A DNA stretch of 64,000 nt from the IMG/VR virus record IMGVR_UViG_3300036805_000175, positions 1 to 64,000 of that record, one strand, 5' to 3'. The notes below the pieces were generated by a model. That model searched no databases. It saw nothing but the letters and a program-made list of their open reading frames with translations, and was not told the origin of the DNA. Source of the DNA: a virus. Its lineage: Duplodnaviria > Caudoviricetes. Below are positions 2,775 to 64,000 of this stretch, one piece after another. How positions within the stretch are numbered: the first letter of the stretch is position 1; every line of letters begins with the position of its first letter. Both the position numbers and the translations under genes were made by a program.

Positions 2775-2976
2775 ACCCCACAGACGGCCGGCAGGCATCC
2801 GTCCTCACGCTGGCTGGCGCATCCGCGCCCGGCCCGCGCTGCGGGTGCCTGCTGGTCCAGAACGTCCCTGCGCACACCCGGGCCCTGGTGCAGGGGCAGC
2901 GGGCAGGCGCGATGAGTCACGGCCCCCGCGTGACCCGCGCCTGCCCGCCCAGGCCATCAGCGACGAGGAGCACCGC

Positions 2977-3183
2977 GTGATCGAAGCAGCCAGCAAGACC
3001 GCCCACCACCTGTCCATGACGCAGAGCGAGTGGGTGGCCAAGGTGTTCCTCGCCCTGGTGTTCCTCGCCGTGATCTGGGTGGTCTGGCGCGGCATCAAGC
3101 GCGCCCTGGGTGGCGGCAGTGCCACCTCCGGCCGCCGTTCCGCCTCCGGCCGCCGCGGCTCGTCCTACTCGTCCTGGCGCTGA
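2977..3183 (+). CDS. Small single-pass membrane protein (Spd-like)
   Basis: GAGGAG RBS, GTG start, hydrophobic VFLALVFLAVIWVVW followed by a basic tail. Confidence 0.55.
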   Translation: MIEAASKTAHHLSMTQSEWVAKVFLALVFLAVIWVVWRGIKRALGGGSATSGRRSASGRRGSSYSSWR

Positions 3184-3190
3184 GCCCCCC

Positions 3191-3721
3191 ATGGCCCACT
3201 ACCCGCCGATGAGCACCCGGCAGAAGGCCGCCCGCGCCGTTGCCGCCGGGGTGATGCTCGCTGCGTTCGCCCAGGCCGGCCACGCGCATGCGTCGGACAG
3301 CAGCGGGAGCGGCGGGAGCCACAAGACCAGCGCAGCGGCGCAGCGGGCCATCGCCTACGCGAAGGCGCAGCTCGGCAAGCCCTACGTCTGGGGTGGCACT
3401 GGGCCGGATGGGTTCGACTGCTCGGGGCTGACCGAGATGGCCTGGTCCGCGGCGGGTGTGAGTATCCCCCGCACGAGCGAGAAGCAGTGGGCCGGCCTGC
3501 GGCACGTACCGGCCAGCCAGCGCCGCCCAGGCGACCTGGTGTTCTTCGCTGGCGTCGATGGCACGTCCACGGCTCCTGGTCACGTCGGCCTCGTCATCGG
3601 CAAGCACAGCATGGTCGAGGCGTACGGCACCGGCTACCCGGTCCGCATCTCCCAGTACGGCACCGCGGCGTCCGCGCCCGGCGACGGCGACCCGGTCGGC
3701 TTCGCGGAGGTGCGCTCGTGA
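3191..3721 (+). CDS. Secreted NlpC/P60 cell-wall peptidase
   Basis: Signal peptide; AQLGKPYVWGGTGPDGFDCSGL, PGDLVFF, GHVGLVIG. Confidence 0.92.
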   Translation: MAHYPPMSTRQKAARAVAAGVMLAAFAQAGHAHASDSSGSGGSHKTSAAAQRAIAYAKAQLGKPYVWGGTGPDGFDCSGLTEMAWSAAGVSIPRTSEKQWAGLRHVPASQRRPGDLVFFAGVDGTSTAPGHVGLVIGKHSMVEAYGTGYPVRISQYGTAASAPGDGDPVGFAEVRS

Positions 3722-3936
3722 CCGCCGTCTGGCTCGCCGTGGCCGCCGCCGTGCTGTTCGTGCTGGCGTGGCCCAGGCACCGCCGTCCCACCGCCTATGC
3801 CCCGCCACCGGGCCCGCGGATGGCTGTCCGCTGCCCAGACTGCGGGCACGCCAATCCCGTACCTGGGCACAGGTTCCCCCGGGCCGGCACCTGCGGGCGC
3901 TGCGGCCACGGGTGGTCGACGGTGAGGACGCGCTGA
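3718..3936 (+). CDS. Small membrane protein with Zn-ribbon
   Basis: N-terminal TM segment; CPDCG...CGRCG. Confidence 0.5.
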   Translation: MTAVWLAVAAAVLFVLAWPRHRRPTAYAPPPGPRMAVRCPDCGHANPVPGHRFPRAGTCGRCGHGWSTVRTR

Positions 3937-4055
3937 TGGCCGCGGCAGGGTGGTGGGCGCAGCACGGGCCGCCCCTGGTAACCGGCGTGACGCTGTACGC
4001 CCTCATCGTCCTGATAGCGGTCGTGCTGCGTGTCAGGGGACGGTGGCATCGGTGA
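3936..4055 (+). CDS. Small membrane peptide
   Basis: TGATG coupling; LVTGVTLYALIVLIAVVL. Confidence 0.45.
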   Translation: MAAAGWWAQHGPPLVTGVTLYALIVLIAVVLRVRGRWHR

Positions 4056-4576
4056 GCCGCCCCCGCAGCCAGGCGATCAGCGGCCGGGAAGCCAAGATGG
4101 CCGCTGCCGTCGGCGTGCTCCTGGCCGTGCTCGCCAGCCACAGCGCGCACGCGGGCACCGGCCACCGCACACACGCCGCTGCGGGCATGGCGATCCCGGG
4201 CAGTCCTTCGGGCGGCTACACCCCGTCGAGCTGGGCGCACGCCATGCTGACCACCGCGGACCTGCCCCATACGCGCTGTAACCTCGCTGCGGTCACGTCC
4301 TGGGAGCGTGCCGAGGGTGGTAACTGGGCTAACACCGCCAAGGCGAACCCACTCAACACGACCATGCCCGAGCCCGGCTCCTGGGTGGTCAACAGCGACG
4401 GCGTGCGGGCCTACCCGTCATGGCGCACGGGCCTGCGGGCCACGGTCGCGACGCTCCGCAACGGCCGGTACTCCGGCGTCCTGGCCGCGCTGCACGCCGG
4501 GCACGACGCCCAGGCTGTCGCTGATGCCGTGGGGTCTTCGCCGTGGGGTACGGGCGGATTCGGGGCGAGCTGCTGA
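4052..4576 (+). CDS. Secreted putative lysozyme-like/transglycosylase cell-wall hydrolase
   Basis: Signal peptide; AVTSWERAEGG...NPLNTT...GVRAYPSWRTGLRATVATL...YSGVLAAL...SPWG, a motif set seen in actinobacterial phage muralytic domains. Confidence 0.55.
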   Translation: MSRPRSQAISGREAKMAAAVGVLLAVLASHSAHAGTGHRTHAAAGMAIPGSPSGGYTPSSWAHAMLTTADLPHTRCNLAAVTSWERAEGGNWANTAKANPLNTTMPEPGSWVVNSDGVRAYPSWRTGLRATVATLRNGRYSGVLAALHAGHDAQAVADAVGSSPWGTGGFGASC

Positions 4577-4869
4577 TGCGCTACCTCGCCGCCATCATCA
4601 TCGGTGCGCTGCTGAGCGCCCTCGTGGTGGGCCTGCTCGGCAGCCTCGGCCCGGTCACCGGCCTGCCGCACCTGCCCCACGGGCTGTGGGCGGACTACCT
4701 GGCGCTTGGCGGCGCGGCCGGGCTGGGTGTGATGGCCGTCTACGGCATCACGGCGTTCTTCATGAGCCTGTGCCTGCTGGTGGCCCAGTGGTGTGGCCGT
4801 CGCGTTCCCACCGCCGGGCCCGAGCCCGCACCGGAACCGCAGAAGGAGGAGTCGTGGGTGCCATTCTGA
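4576..4869 (+). CDS. Two-TM membrane protein (Spd-like)
   Basis: Two hydrophobic segments; coupled to neighbours. Confidence 0.55.
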   Translation: MRYLAAIIIGALLSALVVGLLGSLGPVTGLPHLPHGLWADYLALGGAAGLGVMAVYGITAFFMSLCLLVAQWCGRRVPTAGPEPAPEPQKEESWVPF

Positions 4870-5732
4870 CCGCCGCCGGGTGGGTGTTCCTGCCCGCACT
4901 GGCCGCGCTGGCCGCGCTGCTCGGCCACCAGGCGCTCGCCAAGGACCGGGATCACACCGAACTGGCCGCGACGGCGGCACTGATCACCACGTGCGGCGGC
5001 GTGTGCATCTGCGGTGTCCTCGGGCTGCTGCCGGGCATTCTCGCGATCATCCTCGCCGCTGGCGCGTTCATCGCCGCTGCGGTGCTGTCGGTGGACATGG
5101 TGCGCAAGGTCAGCGACCCGCACCCGGAGGCCAAGGTGCTCGGCGGCCTGGCGCTGGTGAGCTGGCTCGTGGTGCGGGACGCGTTCACGCGCGGACGGAA
5201 GGCGGCCGGGAAGCGCCGGCGGCCACCCGACGAGCTGGCACCGCGCCGCAAGCCGAAGACAGCGGATTCGCCAGCGCCGCCGAAGCGGCCCGATGTGCGT
5301 GCGGTCCCAGACCCGCGCCCGGCACCACCGCCGCGCAGTGCCCCGGCGCTGACCTCCGGGCCGCTGCCACGGGCTGTCGCGGAGGGCCGCGTCTCGCAGG
5401 CTTGGGCGCAGGTCATCTCCGGTATCGCGGACTTCGAGGCGGGCAGCGACGCGGAGTTCCTGGCCCACTGGCAGGAAACGGCGACCGGCATGGTCCACGT
5501 GGCCGACGCCATTATCGACCAGGCCGAGTACCACGCCGAGGAGGTCGGCCTGGCCCCGGTCATCGTCACCGCGATGTTCGACGGCTCCGAACTGGCCAGC
5601 GAGACCTCGTCCGGGTTTGCCGCAGTTCGTGAGCGGCTGCTTGAGGCATACCAGGGTGCCCGCGGCGACGCCGCAGCCGGCCATGACCTGCCGAAGGATG
5701 GACGCTGGGTCACCGGCGAGGATGCCGGATGA
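4854..5732 (+). CDS. Multi-pass membrane protein with acidic C-terminal helical domain (transfer accessory)
   Basis: GTG start after AGGAGG; about 4 N-terminal TM segments; ATGA overlap with traB. Confidence 0.6.
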   Translation: MGAILTAAGWVFLPALAALAALLGHQALAKDRDHTELAATAALITTCGGVCICGVLGLLPGILAIILAAGAFIAAAVLSVDMVRKVSDPHPEAKVLGGLALVSWLVVRDAFTRGRKAAGKRRRPPDELAPRRKPKTADSPAPPKRPDVRAVPDPRPAPPPRSAPALTSGPLPRAVAEGRVSQAWAQVISGIADFEAGSDAEFLAHWQETATGMVHVADAIIDQAEYHAEEVGLAPVIVTAMFDGSELASETSSGFAAVRERLLEAYQGARGDAAAGHDLPKDGRWVTGEDAG

Positions 5733-58629: not shown

Positions 58630-59036
58630 GGCTTCGCTCCCGTCGCTGAGGCCCGTGCCCGCGCCTCCAGGAACCGGCACGCAGCCGCGCACCCGTTCAC
58701 CCCGGCTACTGCGGCAGCCAGAGCGGCGGCATCCGCGGGGTGCCGGAGCGCAATCCGGCCCTGGAGGCCCTGAAGGTCGGTGAGGAGTGCTGAGGCCCGG
58801 GATGCGAGAGTGCCGAGCTTGTCGGCTAGCGGGGACGGGGTGACGCTCATGCCACGCTCCTTCGGGTCATGGCGCTGCAAGCTGCCCGTGCTGGCACGGA
58901 GCCGCCGCTCGTACCGCTCCGCCGTCCGCCGGCTCAGGCCCATCCGGGCCGCCGCCCGCTCAGGCGTCTCCCCGAAGTCACGGGTCAGTTCCCGGTAGTC
59001 CTCCAGCCGGGCCAGCGTCCGCGCCAGCGTGCCCAT
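58626..59036 (-). CDS. HTH-containing protein
   Basis: ETPERAAARMGLSRRTAERYERR. Confidence 0.5.
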   Translation of the reverse strand: MGTLARTLARLEDYRELTRDFGETPERAAARMGLSRRTAERYERRLRASTGSLQRHDPKERGMSVTPSPLADKLGTLASRASALLTDLQGLQGRIALRHPADAAALAAAVAGVNGCAAACRFLEARARASATGAKP

Positions 59037-59041
59037 GCACG

Positions 59042-59380
59042 TCACCGTTCCGCCCTCCTCGCCTCGAGCATCGCCTCGAGCCCGGCCCGCGCGGCCCGGT
59101 ACTCCTCGTTCGGCGGGACACCGCAGCGAGGGACACCCAGCGCCGTCACATGCCCGGCACGGTCGTCCCGGACACGCCCCAGGATGCCGGCCGGCGTCAC
59201 CCGGACCGGGGTGCAGCGGTAGTGCTCGAACACCGCGGCCATGGCCTCGTCCAGGCTCAGGTTCGGCACCCACGGGTTACCCAGGCTGTCCGCCCACGTG
59301 GCCAGGGACGCCTCCGGGTCCAGCGTCTCGTCCCAGCTGCGGGCGAACTCCAGCAGTTCGCGCACCTCGGCCTCGGTCAC
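59042..59380 (-). CDS. G39P/lambda-P-like helicase loader/inhibitor
   Basis: MTEAEVRELL...ATWADSL...LDEAMAAVFEHY...TPAGI; downstream of the replication genes. Confidence 0.55.
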   Translation of the reverse strand: MTEAEVRELLEFARSWDETLDPEASLATWADSLGNPWVPNLSLDEAMAAVFEHYRCTPVRVTPAGILGRVRDDRAGHVTALGVPRCGVPPNEEYRAARAGLEAMLEARRAER

Positions 59381-59604
59381 GCGACATCGCCTCCGAACAT
59401 GGCAGGCTGGATCGGTTTGTCCAGGCGCTTGCGGATCAGCTCGGCGTAGGCCGGGTCCTTCTCGATCAGCAGGCAGCGGAAGCCCTCCACGATGCACGCC
59501 TCGGCCGTCGTGCCGCTGCCCGCGAACGGGTCCAGGACAAGACCATCCGGCGGCGTGATGAGCCGCACCAGCCACGCCATGAGGTCGACAGGCTTGACGG
59601 TCAA
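59377..59604 (-). CDS. C-terminal fragment of N4/N6 DNA methyltransferase (SAM-binding motif I)
   Basis: TVKPVDLMAWLVRLITPPDGLVLDPFAGSGTT...LIEKDPAY. Confidence 0.85.
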   Translation of the reverse strand: MTVKPVDLMAWLVRLITPPDGLVLDPFAGSGTTAEACIVEGFRCLLIEKDPAYAELIRKRLDKPIQPAMFGGDVA

Positions 59605-59699
59605 GTCGGATGGGCAATGTGCCCACCCGTCTCCGGCATCACCTCCTCGAAGTAGGCGTGCAGGTGCGCGGGGACTTGTTCGGGGCGCAGGTCACGCAT
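59601..59699 (-). pseudogene. Middle fragment of the split methyltransferase
   Basis: MRDLRPEQVPAHLHAYFEEVMPETGGHIAHPT*; would join TVKP as HPTVKP without a 5-nt insertion. Confidence 0.5.
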
Positions 59700-59745
59700 A
59701 ACTCATCACCGCGATTGGCTTAATGATCCTTGATAGGCTGGGCGA

Positions 59746-60501
59746 ATGGCGAAGGGACAGCTTGGCTACAAGATCCGTACGATCCGCTGCGCTGGCTGCC
59801 CGGCCGTAGTGACTGGGCACTTCCCACCCGGCCAGCGCTACTGCTCGGCCGCCTGCTACTGGGCGGCTGACCGCCCGAAACGGCGGACTGGGCAGACGCT
59901 CAACTGCGGGCAGTGTGGCCACCCGTTCTACGTCCCGCGCGGCCGGGCCGGCACGGCGCGGTTCTGCTCGGCCGCCTGCCAGATTGCGTGGCAGGGACGC
60001 AACAAGACGGAGCACATCTGCAAGGTTTGCGGTGCGGCGTTCCACTGGTCGCCAAGTCGCAGCGGCGGCGGCAAGTACAACATCACGTACTGCTCGCTGT
60101 CCTGCCGCGATGCCGACCCCGAGCGCACGGCCATGCTCCGCGAGATGAATGCAGTTCAGCAGACACGCCGCACCACGAATGCCGAGCGCATCGGCTACGG
60201 GCTGTTGTCCGCGCTCGGTATCGCCCATGAGCCACAGGCCATGTTCGCCGGGAAGTTCTGCGTCGACGCGCTGCTGCCCAGTTATCGCGCCGTGGTGCAG
60301 TTTGACGGCGACTACTGGCACGACCGCAAGGGCACTAGCGCTGAGCCGAGGATCAGGCACAGAGTGGCGCTCGACGGTTCCCAGGACGCTTACATGCGCG
60401 CCTGCGGCTGGACTGTCCTGCGGCTCTGGGAATCCGACCTCAAGGGCGAGCCGGCCATGTGCGCGGAGAAGATTAGGCAGCATCTACGCCTGCCTTCCTG
60501 A
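59746..60501 (+). CDS. Vsr/DUF559-like homing endonuclease with three Zn-finger repeats, antisense within the MTase
   Basis: 3x CxxC...(Y/F)CSxxC; KFCVDALL...VQFDGDYWH...GWTVLRLWESDL; TGATAGGCT extended -10 at 59731-59739. Confidence 0.82.
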   Translation: MAKGQLGYKIRTIRCAGCPAVVTGHFPPGQRYCSAACYWAADRPKRRTGQTLNCGQCGHPFYVPRGRAGTARFCSAACQIAWQGRNKTEHICKVCGAAFHWSPSRSGGGKYNITYCSLSCRDADPERTAMLREMNAVQQTRRTTNAERIGYGLLSALGIAHEPQAMFAGKFCVDALLPSYRAVVQFDGDYWHDRKGTSAEPRIRHRVALDGSQDAYMRACGWTVLRLWESDLKGEPAMCAEKIRQHLRLPS

Positions 60502-61684
60502 GTTCCGCCATCACGTAGGCGCGCTCATCCTCGGTCAGGTCGGCACGCAGCCGCAGGACGGTGTTCTTGATCCGCGGCCGCTCGGCACTGCCGGCCTTGG
60601 GCTCGTAGCGGAACACGGGGAAGAACCGGGACGCGCCGCCTGAGTCGGCATACATGCTGCCCGGTGTGCCGGCCCCGGGGAAACTGGTCGCTCTAGGATT
60701 GCCGTTTGGCCCGTGATCTACGGCGCTGTAGACGCCGCTGCTCTTGAGCTTCCCGCTCTGCCGGTCCAGTTCCTCTGCGGCTTCTGGGCCGAGCAGGACG
60801 TTCGGCGGCCAGCGGCCCATGCCGTCATGAGGCGCAGGCTGCACGGCCCCGGCCCCATCCGTGCCGCCTGCAAGACGGCCAGCCGCATATGTCCTCGTCC
60901 CCGCCGCCCGCTTGTCCTGCGGGGAACCCACCCGGCACCCGCCTACGTTCACCGCCCCCGTGCCGTGCTCCACCACGTTCGCGGCAACGGTCCCCCGGAG
61001 TGGCTTACGGGCGAGCCACCACATCTCGTGGCCCGGCTTGAGCGCGGTTCCCCAGCCGTCCCAGCGGGCGGCGTTCTCAGTAGCGGGAGCGGTCACGGGA
61101 ATCTCGCCCGGCAGGCCAAGACGGTCACCGTAGACCTCTGGTGAGGCGTTCGGTCGGGCACGGGCACCTCGCGTCCCGTCTGGGAACTGCGGGCGTGTGC
61201 CGACTACCTCTCGCGCAGCACCGGCCGCCCTGTCGATGGCCTTGGACACGTCCAGCGACTTCGGGAAGCCCGAGCCGAACAGGTGCGTCACGCAGTCGCG
61301 GATCTCCAGCCCGGCGTCCTCGATCGCCCAGGCCGTCCAGTGCGAGGTGCGCGGGATGGACCAGACCAGAGCGTGCGCGCCGGGCTTCATCACGCGCATC
61401 GCCTCGGCCAGGACGGCGGTCAGCCACTCCACGAAAGCCCCGCGCTCGCCGTGCCCGTACTCCGGGCCACGGGCAGACGTGTGGCCGGACACGTCACCAC
61501 GGCCCACGTCGGCAGGGTTGCGGGCCCGGCGGAAGTCATCCCACTCGCGGCCCATGAACGCAATTCCCGCTGGAGGGTCGGTGACTACCGCGTCGACGCT
61601 GGCAGCCTCCAGGGTGGGCAGCACAGTGAGGCAGTCCCCGAGGTGCAGCGTCACCCGGTCGTCCGCCCAGTATGCCTCGGTCAT
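60473..61684 (-). CDS. N-terminal part of beta-class N4/N6 DNA methyltransferase
   Basis: LHLGDCLTVL...VVTDPPAG...FGSGFPKSLD...WGTALKP...GRWPPN...SRFFPVFRYEPKA; lacks motif I. Confidence 0.88.
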   Translation of the reverse strand: MTEAYWADDRVTLHLGDCLTVLPTLEAASVDAVVTDPPAGIAFMGREWDDFRRARNPADVGRGDVSGHTSARGPEYGHGERGAFVEWLTAVLAEAMRVMKPGAHALVWSIPRTSHWTAWAIEDAGLEIRDCVTHLFGSGFPKSLDVSKAIDRAAGAAREVVGTRPQFPDGTRGARARPNASPEVYGDRLGLPGEIPVTAPATENAARWDGWGTALKPGHEMWWLARKPLRGTVAANVVEHGTGAVNVGGCRVGSPQDKRAAGTRTYAAGRLAGGTDGAGAVQPAPHDGMGRWPPNVLLGPEAAEELDRQSGKLKSSGVYSAVDHGPNGNPRATSFPGAGTPGSMYADSGGASRFFPVFRYEPKAGSAERPRIKNTVLRLRADLTEDERAYVMAELRKAGVDAA

Positions 61685-62355
61685 GCCGCGCTCCCGTACC
61701 GCCGGTCGCTGCCCTTGAGCACGACGCGCGTGGTCATCTCCGTGAGCCGGGACGCCACCCGCTCCCCCAGCGCGCCGGCCAGGTCACGCGGCGGGATGTT
61801 CGAGGTGAACAGGGTCGGCAGCGCGTGCTCGTAGCGGTGGTTCACCAGCCGGTAGTTGACCTCCTCCACCCATTCGCTGCTCTTGGCCGCGCCCAGGTCG
61901 TCCAGCACCAGCAGGCCAGCGCCGCCGACCGCGGCGAACTCGGCCTCGGAGTCGACGCCGTGCCGTGGCCGCATCCGCGCGTACAGGTCGGCGGCCGGGA
62001 TGGCCACCCACCGGGAGCGGATGCCGCACGCGGCCAGCCCGCGGATGACGCCGTACGCCTCATGCGTTTTGCCCGTCCCCGTGGGCCCGAGCAGCAGCAG
62101 CGAGGGACCGCCGTCGACGGAGGCGACCACGCGCCGCCGGGCCAGGGCGTGCCGCACCAGCACGGCCACCCACGTGCGCACACCCTCGTCGGTGGCCAGG
62201 GCCGTGGCGTAGCGGGCCGGGATGCGCGACATGGCCTGGCTGAACGCCTCGGCGGCACCGTAGTCGCCGTCGTCGGCGGCCAGGGACGCGGAGTCGATGC
62301 CGCTGCCGGCCAGGAACTCCTCGCGCCATGCGGCGAGGTCGCTGGGAAGGTTCAC
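61681..62355 (-). CDS. DnaC/IstB-like AAA+ helicase loader
   Basis: LLLLGPTGTGKTH, LLVLDDLGAAK, NHRYEHALPTLFTSN, GERVASRL. Confidence 0.92.
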   Translation of the reverse strand: MNLPSDLAAWREEFLAGSGIDSASLAADDGDYGAAEAFSQAMSRIPARYATALATDEGVRTWVAVLVRHALARRRVVASVDGGPSLLLLGPTGTGKTHEAYGVIRGLAACGIRSRWVAIPAADLYARMRPRHGVDSEAEFAAVGGAGLLVLDDLGAAKSSEWVEEVNYRLVNHRYEHALPTLFTSNIPPRDLAGALGERVASRLTEMTTRVVLKGSDRRYGSAA

Positions 62356-63230
62356 CGGGGACGCAACTCCTCGTTGTAGACGGACGGGTCGGCGGGGTTG
62401 CGGAAGGTCTGGTGACCCTGCTCGCTGGTCCCGCCACCACCGTTGGTTATGCCGTTGACGAAGCTCGCCAGCGTGGACGGATGCTTGGCCGCGATACGCC
62501 ACTGCTCAAGGCCGGCCCGGATGTCGTCCGTTTCCTGGCCCTCGTCGAGCAGCTTCTTGAGCTCTGCGGATATCTGGCCGATCACCCGGTCGGGTGGGCG
62601 CTTGCGGCAGGCGCGAATCCATTCAGCGACGAGCGTTCCGGCTGTCGCCGTTGTGGCTTGCTCGGTCCGCGCTGCCTGCGCCGGCGTAGCCGGAACGGGT
62701 TTGGGTTCGGGTATGGGCGCTATCTCGTTAGAGATAGCCCGGTGCGCCGGCGCGCGCGAGCCATCACTTGCCATCGGCTTGCCAGCAACGTCATGGCTAC
62801 CCTTTGGCAAGTTGTCAGGATTGGATGGCAAATTGCTATCGGGCTTTGACTCCGGGCCATCCGCGTCACGCTTGGCCCACCGCGCCTGAGCACCGCGCCG
62901 GCCTGCTTGCGCCCGTGCCTCACGCGTCTTCGGCGTCGGCAGGTACTGGTCGAAGTCGTGGATCAGCCACCCGTCGCCCTCGTCGCGGGATTCCCAGAGT
63001 TCTTCCTTGACGAGCAGCGCGGCGAGCTCGCGCGCACCCGGCCCGAGGTAGCGCCGCGGCAGGTGCGCGGGAAGCAGGCCCGGCGTCTTGCCTTTGCGGA
63101 GCGTGTTGCGGTGCGCCCAGGTCAGGCAGAGAGTCCATAGGCCGATAGCGGCACCGCCCTGCTCGTGGTCGAGCAAGGCGAGCACCTTGGGGTGGTCGTC
63201 GAACGCATCGTCAATGCGCGCCCACGCCAT
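62352..63230 (-). CDS. Phage replication initiator (replisome organizer)
   Basis: MAWARIDDAFDDHPKV...GLWTLCL...LVKEELWE...GWLIHDFDQY; low-complexity middle; directly upstream of dnaC-like gene. Confidence 0.85.
   Translation of the reverse strand: MAWARIDDAFDDHPKVLALLDHEQGGAAIGLWTLCLTWAHRNTLRKGKTPGLLPAHLPRRYLGPGARELAALLVKEELWESRDEGDGWLIHDFDQYLPTPKTREARAQAGRRGAQARWAKRDADGPESKPDSNLPSNPDNLPKGSHDVAGKPMASDGSRAPAHRAISNEIAPIPEPKPVPATPAQAARTEQATTATAGTLVAEWIRACRKRPPDRVIGQISAELKKLLDEGQETDDIRAGLEQWRIAAKHPSTLASFVNGITNGGGGTSEQGHQTFRNPADPSVYNEELRPR
62760..62840. repeat. Iteron-like repeats inside the initiator gene (candidate ori)
   Basis: CTTGCCA at 62767 and 62778, inverted TGGCAAG 62805, dyad GATGGCAA-A-TTGCTATC 62824-62840. 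Confidence 0.55.
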
Positions 63231-63807: not shown

Positions 63808-64000
63808 TCACGCGGCGACCTCCGTCCGCACACGGTCAAGCAGCAACGACAGGGCCAGGGCCGCCTGGGCCGGGACCACCCCGTTGCCGAGAGCCTTGAG
63901 CTGGGCGTTGCGGGACAGGCCGGGCACGTCCGTGACCCAGCCCGCAGGCAGGCCCATTAGCCACTCGACGAACGCCGGGCTCAGCCGCTGCCCAGTTCGT
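63808..64000 (-). CDS. C5-cytosine DNA methyltransferase, C-terminal end (partial)
   Basis: Manual translation RLSPAFVEWLMGLPAGWVT...QLKALGNGVVPAQA (motifs IX/X). Confidence 0.85.
   Translation of the reverse strand, partial: RTGQRLSPAFVEWLMGLPAGWVTDVPGLSRNAQLKALGNGVVPAQAALALSLLLDRVRTEVAA

Follow-up and report, generated by a model that had tools for sequence, protein, structure and literature searches.

What becomes of a phage DNA methylase gene when a nuclease gene on the opposite strand comes to lie within it? The question is raised by a locus in a 64,000-nt stretch of DNA, hereafter the window (67% GC), which comprises positions 1 to 64,000 of the high-GC, 76.6-kb IMG/VR virus record IMGVR_UViG_3300036805_000175. 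An earlier note, made from the letters alone, had described there a beta-class methylase gene split by an antisense Vsr-like homing endonuclease gene. Our analysis leads us to propose, with a probability of roughly two in three, that a mobile homing-endonuclease cassette invaded this gene and left it as three co-oriented open reading frames (ORFs).

The beta-class N6/N4 DNA methylase is encoded jointly by three minus-strand ORFs. The N fragment (60473-61684; 403 amino acids [aa]) contains the motif IV region, the target-recognition part, FRYEPKAGSAERP, and then a tail (60476-60571, minus strand; hRLRxDLTxEExxYVxxELxKxGV) that closes the protein. The C fragment (59377-59604; 75 aa) contains the rest of motif X (VKPVDLMAWLV) and the AdoMet motif I (FxGxG), and reads TVKPVDLMAWLV...DPFAGSGTT. 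Matches to PF01555 in Pfam are weak for the N fragment (profile positions 1-74) and strong for the C fragment (positions 164-220, E = 5e-15). Because the two fragments match PHROG 67 at positions 114-284 and 284-348, respectively, they abut in a single profile, and the positions in both profiles give the motif order IV ... X, I. The coordinates and profiles thus agree with the earlier claim of two methylase parts separated by an opposite-strand nuclease gene, except that the pieces number three. The additional piece is a 32-aa middle ORF (59601-59699), whose ATG at 59699 is where methylase-like sequence had been said to resume. It consists of a cassette-borne N-peptide (...VPxHLxxYFEEV...) and host-derived ...AHPT, followed by TGA, and matches PHROG 7789 (E = 1.3e-5), in which the corresponding 30-aa ORFs of Mycobacterium phages form a family of their own with no assigned function. 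A second break, at 59599-59603 (minus strand), separates the middle ORF from the C fragment; it is a 5-nt insert, TGACC, with the Thr codon of HPT on one side and the GTC of VKP on the other. The C-fragment TTG overlaps the middle-ORF stop in a different frame (TTGA), and the C-fragment stop overlaps the GTG of the next gene (GTGA).

The nuclease gene (59746-60501, plus strand) encodes 251 aa, with three CxxC...CSxxC zinc-finger modules and a Vsr-like catalytic domain (residues about 135-250). As had been noted, the stop of the N fragment (60473-60475) lies inside its 3′ end, by 29 nt. Matches of the window nuclease to Pfam are weak (MTES_1575 [REase_MTES_1575], DUF559, and Vsr). In an alignment of 13 nuclease relatives (A1), the three zinc-finger modules are invariant, as are E147, D174, QFDGDYWH, D210/D214, and RxWE in the core. 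The A1 profile matches E. coli Vsr (1CW0) at E = 3.6e-7 and 3HRL at 1e-4, and matches I-Bth0305I weakly; in these comparisons, D174, Y190/W191/H192, and D210/D214 align to Vsr D51, F67/W68/H69, and D97, which are the catalytic Asp, His, and Asp and the intercalating aromatic pair. An AlphaFold model (pLDDT 87) is matched by Foldseek to 1CW0, 1VSR, 3R3P (the I-Bth0305I catalytic domain; TM 0.78 on target), and 3HRL (a DUF559 protein). Judged by sequence and predicted structure, the nuclease is a member of the Vsr-like homing-endonuclease family (Dassa et al., 2009, PMC2677866; Taylor et al., 2011, PMC3239194), with a Vsr/I-Bth0305I-type fold and its catalytic residues intact, as the zinc-finger/Vsr-like assignment of the earlier note had implied.

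How the nuclease gene is expressed is suggested by a plus-strand, extended -10-like TGnTAGGCT (59731-59745), in which TGATAGGCT lies 6 nt before the nuclease ATG. A simple scan of the locus for sigma-70 consensus promoters and terminators found nothing and did not pick up this element. However, similar TAGNNT hexamers precede the ATG by 6-7 nt in phages Seagreen and Malithi and at loci L008 and L009; in L010 the distance is 10 nt. The position of TGnTAGGCT near the ATG would possibly fit a leaderless promoter. Regulatory hairpins have been reported for other free-standing nucleases, whereas the 5′ region of the window nuclease shows no unusual fold (z 0.9) and no hairpin beyond chance.

The strand opposite the nuclease is itself open. 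Here a 263-aa minus-strand "bridge" ORF (59692-60483), codon-aligned with the nuclease in antisense, has an 11-nt overlap with the N-fragment stop and an 8-nt overlap with the middle-ORF ATG. Taken together, this ORF and the three methylase pieces use all three frames. It is possible that the bridge ORF is translated and couples translation of the neighboring ORFs, or that it is a by-product of high GC; synonymous shuffling, a weak test at 67% GC, found no significant antisense openness in the window (P 0.2). In the low-GC relatives L013 (nuclease at 2797-3681) and L016 (2977-3708), the codon-aligned antisense frame is open for 278-300 codons and the nuclease almost lacks TTA, CTA, and TCA (0-1 observed, about 9.5 expected; chance of zero 1e-5 in L013 and 1.5e-6 in L016). 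Since the complements of these codons are stops, their avoidance indicates that the opposite strand has been kept open in these two relatives, in agreement with the antisense VSR-like nucleases described in inteins (10.1101/2025.01.02.630785). The nucleases of L017 and L019 show no such avoidance.

Where does the cassette begin and end? Uninterrupted alleles (prophiGD51-1, Quico, and ThulaThula) read ...ERPSANGVAHPTVKPLDLMRW..., and in these the HPTVKP codons are contiguous. Comparison with such alleles, which had been suggested as the way to define the insertion point, gives clear boundaries. Quico and Seagreen DNA are near-identical through the ERPS codons and again from GTCAA (VKP). Between these points Seagreen has the tail codons and stop, the antisense nuclease, a new ATG with a peptide of ~20 codons, the ...VAHPT codons, and a 7-nt insert; ~20 nt past VKP are likewise cassette-specific. 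The methylase bodies that bear the cassette are highly diverse, some containing an intein or other inserts, and the cassette and its flanks are nearly identical, a combination that fits lateral spread with co-conversion.

The proposed cassette would thus have four parts. In the methylase orientation, it would start with ~90 nt that encode the conserved C-terminal tail and its stop, continue with the nuclease gene on the opposite strand and the -10-like element just before its ATG, then supply a new ATG and ~20 codons of conserved N-peptide, and end, ~100 nt on, with the short stop-containing insert placed exactly between HPT and VKP of motif X. We infer that the nuclease cuts cassette-free methylase genes near the sequence coding for VKPxDLM and that recombinational repair would then copy the cassette in. 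By analogy with the relation between the 50-nt gap of T4 gene 60 and MobA, the insert may also destroy the nuclease's own target, a suggestion that we make tentatively and hold at somewhat less than even odds.

The VKPxDLM-coding sequence adjoins the 5′ side of the nuclease in the split family and at locus L031, as well as in orphan remnants at L011 and L012. At L031, tail, Vsr-like nuclease, and N-peptide split a methylase of a second subfamily just before VKPKDLMGIPW. The L031 methylase (3591-4924) is apparently broken further upstream too, with an SPPY-bearing N-terminus in another frame (about 4234-4371) and an HNH gene (4370-4924) adjoining this piece. L011 and L012 present a different arrangement, in which an intact methylase lies upstream and the nuclease is convergent behind it. 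Just beyond the 5′ side of the nuclease are orphan methylase fragments starting at VKP (L012, 2841-2963, minus strand, TVKPIDLMKW; L011, about 2900-2990, minus strand, a decayed ...PALLMRWL). These remnants give the impression of an original 3′ gene end pushed aside by a substitute that came in with the element.

The distribution of the cassette is that expected of a selfish homing element. The gene order of the window is shared with Mycobacterium phages of Fishburnevirus and Cheoctovirus in blastn comparisons, and the same architecture occurs in Mycobacterium phages of two subfamilies and in metagenomic phages whose N fragments are as little as 27% identical to that of the window. Nuclease relatives are also found with no methylase nearby. 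In a phage collection, 85 Mycobacterium-phage records contain the middle-ORF junction, only 17 of which have a full-length nuclease (61% identical to the window nuclease); in 9 records it is reduced to its last 66 codons. Together with the recombined flanks, this patchy distribution and the series of decay states agree with the earlier interpretation of the nuclease as selfish. The 66-codon state, a second and independent deletion, is found in L041 (Mycobacterium phage Bobi), Megiddo, Atcoo, Brusacoram, and Thespis, where the N, middle, and C ORFs are intact. Homologs split in the same way with no nuclease, which the earlier note had named as grounds for doubt, do exist in phages Harley and Zilizebeth. 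Compared with Malithi, these lack exactly 705 nt, with one end of the deletion 17 nt upstream of the nuclease ATG and the other inside the RLWE|SDL motif, but they retain the 3′ codons of the nuclease. Because this coding sequence remains, the two alleles do not refute the proposed invasion; the nuclease-less split alleles that we examined are, by their sequence, deletion derivatives, as expected in the decay phase of a homing element. As a further observation on this group, the N fragment of Willsammy (gp52; L002, 2482-4662) also holds an intein in its GSGFPKS motif (PMC9957025), so that two selfish elements occupy one gene.

If the cassette places a stop codon inside motif X, how is the C fragment made? 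All eight lineages with the second break share the same pattern: a Thr codon, a stop (TTA in L009), 0-3 nt, ACC or GCC, and then GTN AAR CCN. The inserts measure 5 nt in the window, 7 nt in Seagreen, Malithi, L008, and L010, 8 nt in L009 and L013, and 9 nt in L026. The insert lies within the recombined tract, and it is co-inherited with the nuclease in all eight lineages, among them L013, a phage of 44% GC with an N fragment that shares only 27% identity with that of the window. The candidate start codons differ. In the window and L013 the start overlaps the stop as TTGA, in L009 it overlaps as GTGA, and in L010 a GTG lies 4 nt past the stop; in the Mycobacterium phages and L008, GGAGG (GAGGTGG in L008) is followed after 6 nt by a GTG inside the middle ORF. 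No obvious ribosome-binding site precedes the TTG of the window. We favor, by a little over even odds, the best reading of these data, which is that the C fragment is made by re-initiation or from its own start codon. It is also conceivable, though unlikely, that a short ribosomal hop takes the Thr-tRNA from ACY to RCC and restores HPTVKP. A classical -1 frameshift at this break was considered and rejected, since a slippery heptamer is lacking and lineages differ in their frame offset (+1, +2, and 0).

Are the pieces functional? Synonymous sites are not saturated between Seagreen and Malithi, and for this pair the synonymous/non-synonymous differences are 12/3 for the tail, 13/1 for the C fragment, and 83/36 for the nuclease; the corresponding dN/dS values are 0.07 (tail region), 0.02 (C fragment), and 0.10 (nuclease). 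In these relatives, tail, C fragment, and nuclease are thus under purifying selection; for the methylase fragments, the earlier note had considered relaxed selection as a sign of a simple pseudogene. Even where divergence has saturated synonymous sites, in at least six lineages, all pieces remain open. Since two-subunit and engineered split methylases are active (PMC3404938, PMC2836561), since dN/dS is low, and since the pieces stay open at saturation, we think that methylases of the split family probably work as separate polypeptides, in trans.

Several observations count against an invasion that left a working three-piece methylase. In the window, the fourth residue of the catalytic motif ([D/N/S]PP[Y/F/W/H]) is not aromatic: the motif IV region lies in the N fragment, where it had been placed, but reads DPPA (about 61568-61579, minus strand) and not the DPPY of 15 aligned relatives. 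Such a replacement reportedly impairs catalysis in mutant studies. The AFGG.RT.HR motif of the window N fragment is also altered or lost, whereas relatives keep AFGG.RT; the other non-mycobacteriophage sequences aligned (P0002-P0004) keep both DPPY and AFGG.RT. The 30-codon middle ORF is uninformative as to selection, with 3 synonymous and 5 non-synonymous differences between Seagreen and Malithi. In structure prediction, the N fragment alone folds poorly (mean pLDDT 53), the tail helix being the only confident part, and the net charges of tail and N-peptide are inconsistent in their complementarity. At L026 (2470-2600, minus strand), the second break is in frame (HPT, TGA, AAG GCC, VKP) and no ATG, GTG, or TTG follows the insert for about 25 codons, an arrangement for which the re-initiation model does not account; expression of this C fragment would, from its sequence, need stop-codon readthrough, a hop, or a non-standard start. 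Finally, the second break is absent from L031, and self-immunity through the insert is therefore not universal.

Because its motif IV is DPPA, the window methylase itself may be catalytically weak or dead. The earlier alternatives, reassembly in trans or a dead enzyme, are thus answered differently at two levels: for the family, dN/dS leans toward function in trans, and for the window copy, with its DPPA, either may hold. This brings us to the rival that survives best, that the nuclease insertion simply killed the methylase, so that the window fragments are decaying remnants that support no methylation. The two altered motifs of the window copy, the spread of the gene over three frames, and the lack of an obvious ribosome-binding site before the TTG would fit a pseudogene. 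Against it, all three ORFs are intact in the window and in the saturated lineages, the tail and C fragment are strongly constrained in Mycobacterium phages, and split alleles outlast loss of the nuclease. We consider simple death of the gene unlikely.

What, then, do the tail and N-peptide do? In a first search, every database protein that carried the tail stopped at it. A tail profile searched against 1.84 billion representative proteins (E ≤ 0.001) matched 195 clusters, and among the 145 top hits analyzed at least 118 have the motif at their extreme C-terminus. Outside the motif, which was masked for this comparison, 132 of these 145 look like beta-class methylases. The break is mostly after KAxxxER, and in a second methylase subfamily also follows SPPY, GLEPTPxCG, LNLGDSY, or VWTI; altogether, the cassette peptides have reached five or more positions in two methylase subfamilies, in one case accompanied by an HNH nuclease in place of the Vsr-like one. 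In the latter case (L087, 2501-4725, and L088), tail and N-peptide (IPEHLRRFF) flank an antisense HNH/NUMOD3-type nuclease that splits an SPPY-type methylase after LNLGSSY. The peptide pair is therefore not bound to one nuclease family.

These features give some substance to a second rival, that the split, or the module of tail plus N-peptide, is older than the nuclease and that free-standing nucleases (Vsr-like or HNH) landed in it later. In its favor are the two unrelated nuclease types in the same module, the many Mycobacterium phages whose methylase is split with no nuclease, and protein P0227, which has an uninterrupted 45-aa module with no nuclease nearby. P0227 is an intact 454-aa methylase (L084, 2501-3865) in which tail and N-peptide are fused as an in-frame insert (residues about 90-133) after GLEPTPDCG; its locus contains no nuclease gene within 2.5 kb, and a region search with the contiguous module matched only P0227 itself. 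Three results speak for the opposite order. The nuclease-less split alleles examined keep nuclease 3′ codons and are hence deletion derivatives, no tail protein of the first search runs past the tail, and module and nuclease occur together at several host positions. We regard precedence of the module as improbable.

Under the proposed invasion by a cassette, one possibility, to which we give just short of an even chance, is that tail and N-peptide are a docking pair that reassembles the fragments non-covalently; a helix is confidently predicted in the tail (residues 385-397). A larger and more doubtful idea is that the cassette brings along a device for reassembling the protein, in the form of a small heterodimeric clamp (helix-loop-helix-like) that would let antisense Vsr-like or HNH nucleases break methylases at many sites without killing them, accompanied by a 5-9-nt insert that would act as a miniature, self-protective counterpart of the gene 60 gap and be crossed by re-initiation or a short hop. 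Such a clamp would be the non-covalent counterpart of a split intein.

A third rival, which we consider very unlikely, is that the pieces are rejoined into one polypeptide at the RNA or protein level, whether by an intron or split intein or by programmed frameshifting. Precedents exist for Vsr-like nucleases both within group I introns and between the halves of split inteins (PMC2677866, PMC3239194), and the Thr codon, stop, and RCC codon of all eight second-break variants would permit a hop to HPTVKP. However, an Rfam search of 59000-62000 with E values up to 1 matched no family and found no recognizable intron RNA around the nuclease, and the tail and N-peptide are conserved as protein, unlike expected intron sequence. 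The pieces and the bridge ORF use all three frames, and in Mycobacterium phages GGAGG-N6-GTG serves the C fragment. A split intein was rejected as a candidate: the flanking peptides are only ~32 aa (tail) and ~22 aa (N-peptide), and, across eight lineages and 145 database hits, there is no conserved Cys, Ser, or Thr at the N junction and no HN plus nucleophile at the C junction. The statement that no intron or intein is evident thus holds for both kinds of element. An in-frame stealth insertion was rejected as well, since the N fragment stops at the TAA at 60473 and the antisense, middle, and C ORFs are in other frames.

The last rival, that the nuclease is a functional partner of the methylase (a restriction enzyme or Vsr-type mismatch repair enzyme) and not selfish, draws on the weak Pfam match to REase_MTES_1575 and on the nucleases of L011, L012, L017, and L019, which face an intact methylase convergently, the arrangement of type II restriction-modification pairs, but is scarcely credible given that the window nuclease is inside the methylase gene, that most Mycobacterium-phage alleles have a deleted or truncated nuclease and persisting methylase pieces, that relatives occur with no methylase nearby, and that antisense VSR-like endonucleases are found in inteins of unrelated phage genes (10.1101/2025.01.02.630785).

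The neighborhood of the locus includes an IstB/DnaC-like ATPase gene (61681-62502, minus strand; PF01695, E = 3e-8) and the C-terminal end of a C5 cytosine methylase-like gene (63808-64000, minus strand). These neighbors place the split gene in a replication/modification module with at least one further methylase.

Our findings have consequences for how these genomes are annotated. In most deposited genomes the wrong strand is annotated and the methylase pieces are listed as unrelated genes. Most records give the antisense ORF as a hypothetical protein and not as a nuclease (e.g., Willsammy gp53 and Malithi gp54; PHROG 25269, a family built of such annotated ORFs to which the bridge ORF of the window also belongs), and an endonuclease is named only in the Kari and Seagreen records. 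Around one target motif we see three apparent solutions: a split with portable peptides, a replacement 3′ gene end, and, in relatives, read-through on the opposite strand. The proposals are directly testable, as culturable phages of Mycobacterium smegmatis carry the whole cassette (Seagreen, Kari, and Fishburne), a decayed cassette (Harley and Zilizebeth), or an empty site (Quico and Shauna1). Should a portable pair of peptides indeed reassemble split enzymes, protein engineers would also take an interest in it.

How does this cassette compare with known systems? Gene fracture by free-standing nucleases, Vsr-like homing nucleases, antisense nucleases in inteins, and other selfish inserts in the same methylase family are already known (PMC2677866, PMC2988022, PMC9957025, PMC11855218); we found no mention of the window nuclease, the methylase split, or the peptide pair in the literature searched. 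The ShiLan domain and its hidden HNH gene show that the same actinophage methylase family has been invaded repeatedly by selfish elements that are neither introns nor inteins (PMC9957025, PMC11855218), but the ShiLan domain is inserted in frame at another place in the gene, its HNH gene lies out of frame on the same strand, and these two papers make no mention of a Vsr nuclease, an antisense gene, or a C-terminal split. In M.AquI, M.EcoHK31I, and split M.SssI and M.HhaI, separate methylase fragments likewise reassemble into active enzyme (PMC3404938, PMC2836561); these are C5 methylases split at other positions, with no mobile element. The antisense VSR-like endonucleases in full inteins of actinophages also lie on the opposite strand and combine an extra N-terminal region with a Vsr core (1CW0, 3R3P), but the host frame there is a self-splicing intein in polymerase, capsid, terminase, or thymidylate synthase genes (10.1101/2025.01.02.630785), whereas the window has no intein and a host gene that is physically split.

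The fractured genes of Dassa et al. are closer. These, too, are conserved genes for phage enzymes that have been interrupted in place, the two halves being separated by a gene for a free-standing endonuclease of Vsr-like or GIY-YIG type; the endonuclease ORF overlaps a neighboring fragment, and both halves carry extra peptides (Dassa et al., 2009, PMC2677866). Their appended peptides are protein-ligating split-intein halves and all genes are on one strand; in the window, by contrast, the nuclease is antisense (plus versus minus), intein blocks are absent, a second break is present, and the gene that is split encodes a DNA methylase, a kind of enzyme missing from their list.

Bonocora and colleagues reportedly described, in 2011, T4 mobA together with the 50-nt coding gap of gene 60. 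There, as in the window, a nuclease gene splits a host gene (39/60), and a short stop-bearing insert, part of the same mobile cassette, follows directly on the take-off codon a few dozen codons into the downstream piece (10.1101/2022.08.31.505936). The inserts of our family differ in being 5-9 nt and not 50, no bypass signals were identified, and several lineages have a separate start codon. In phage Aeh1, the halves of NrdA, whose gene is split by mobE, were shown to work as separate polypeptides (PMC2988022, PMC2677866). That system, like gp43 split by a GIY-YIG gene, has an HNH or GIY-YIG nuclease on the same strand and a host gene in two pieces; a portable, conserved pair of peptides has not been reported there from several insertion sites. 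The arrangement described here is a variant of the intein-less fractured gene known from Aeh1 nrdA/mobE and T4 mobA/gene 60.

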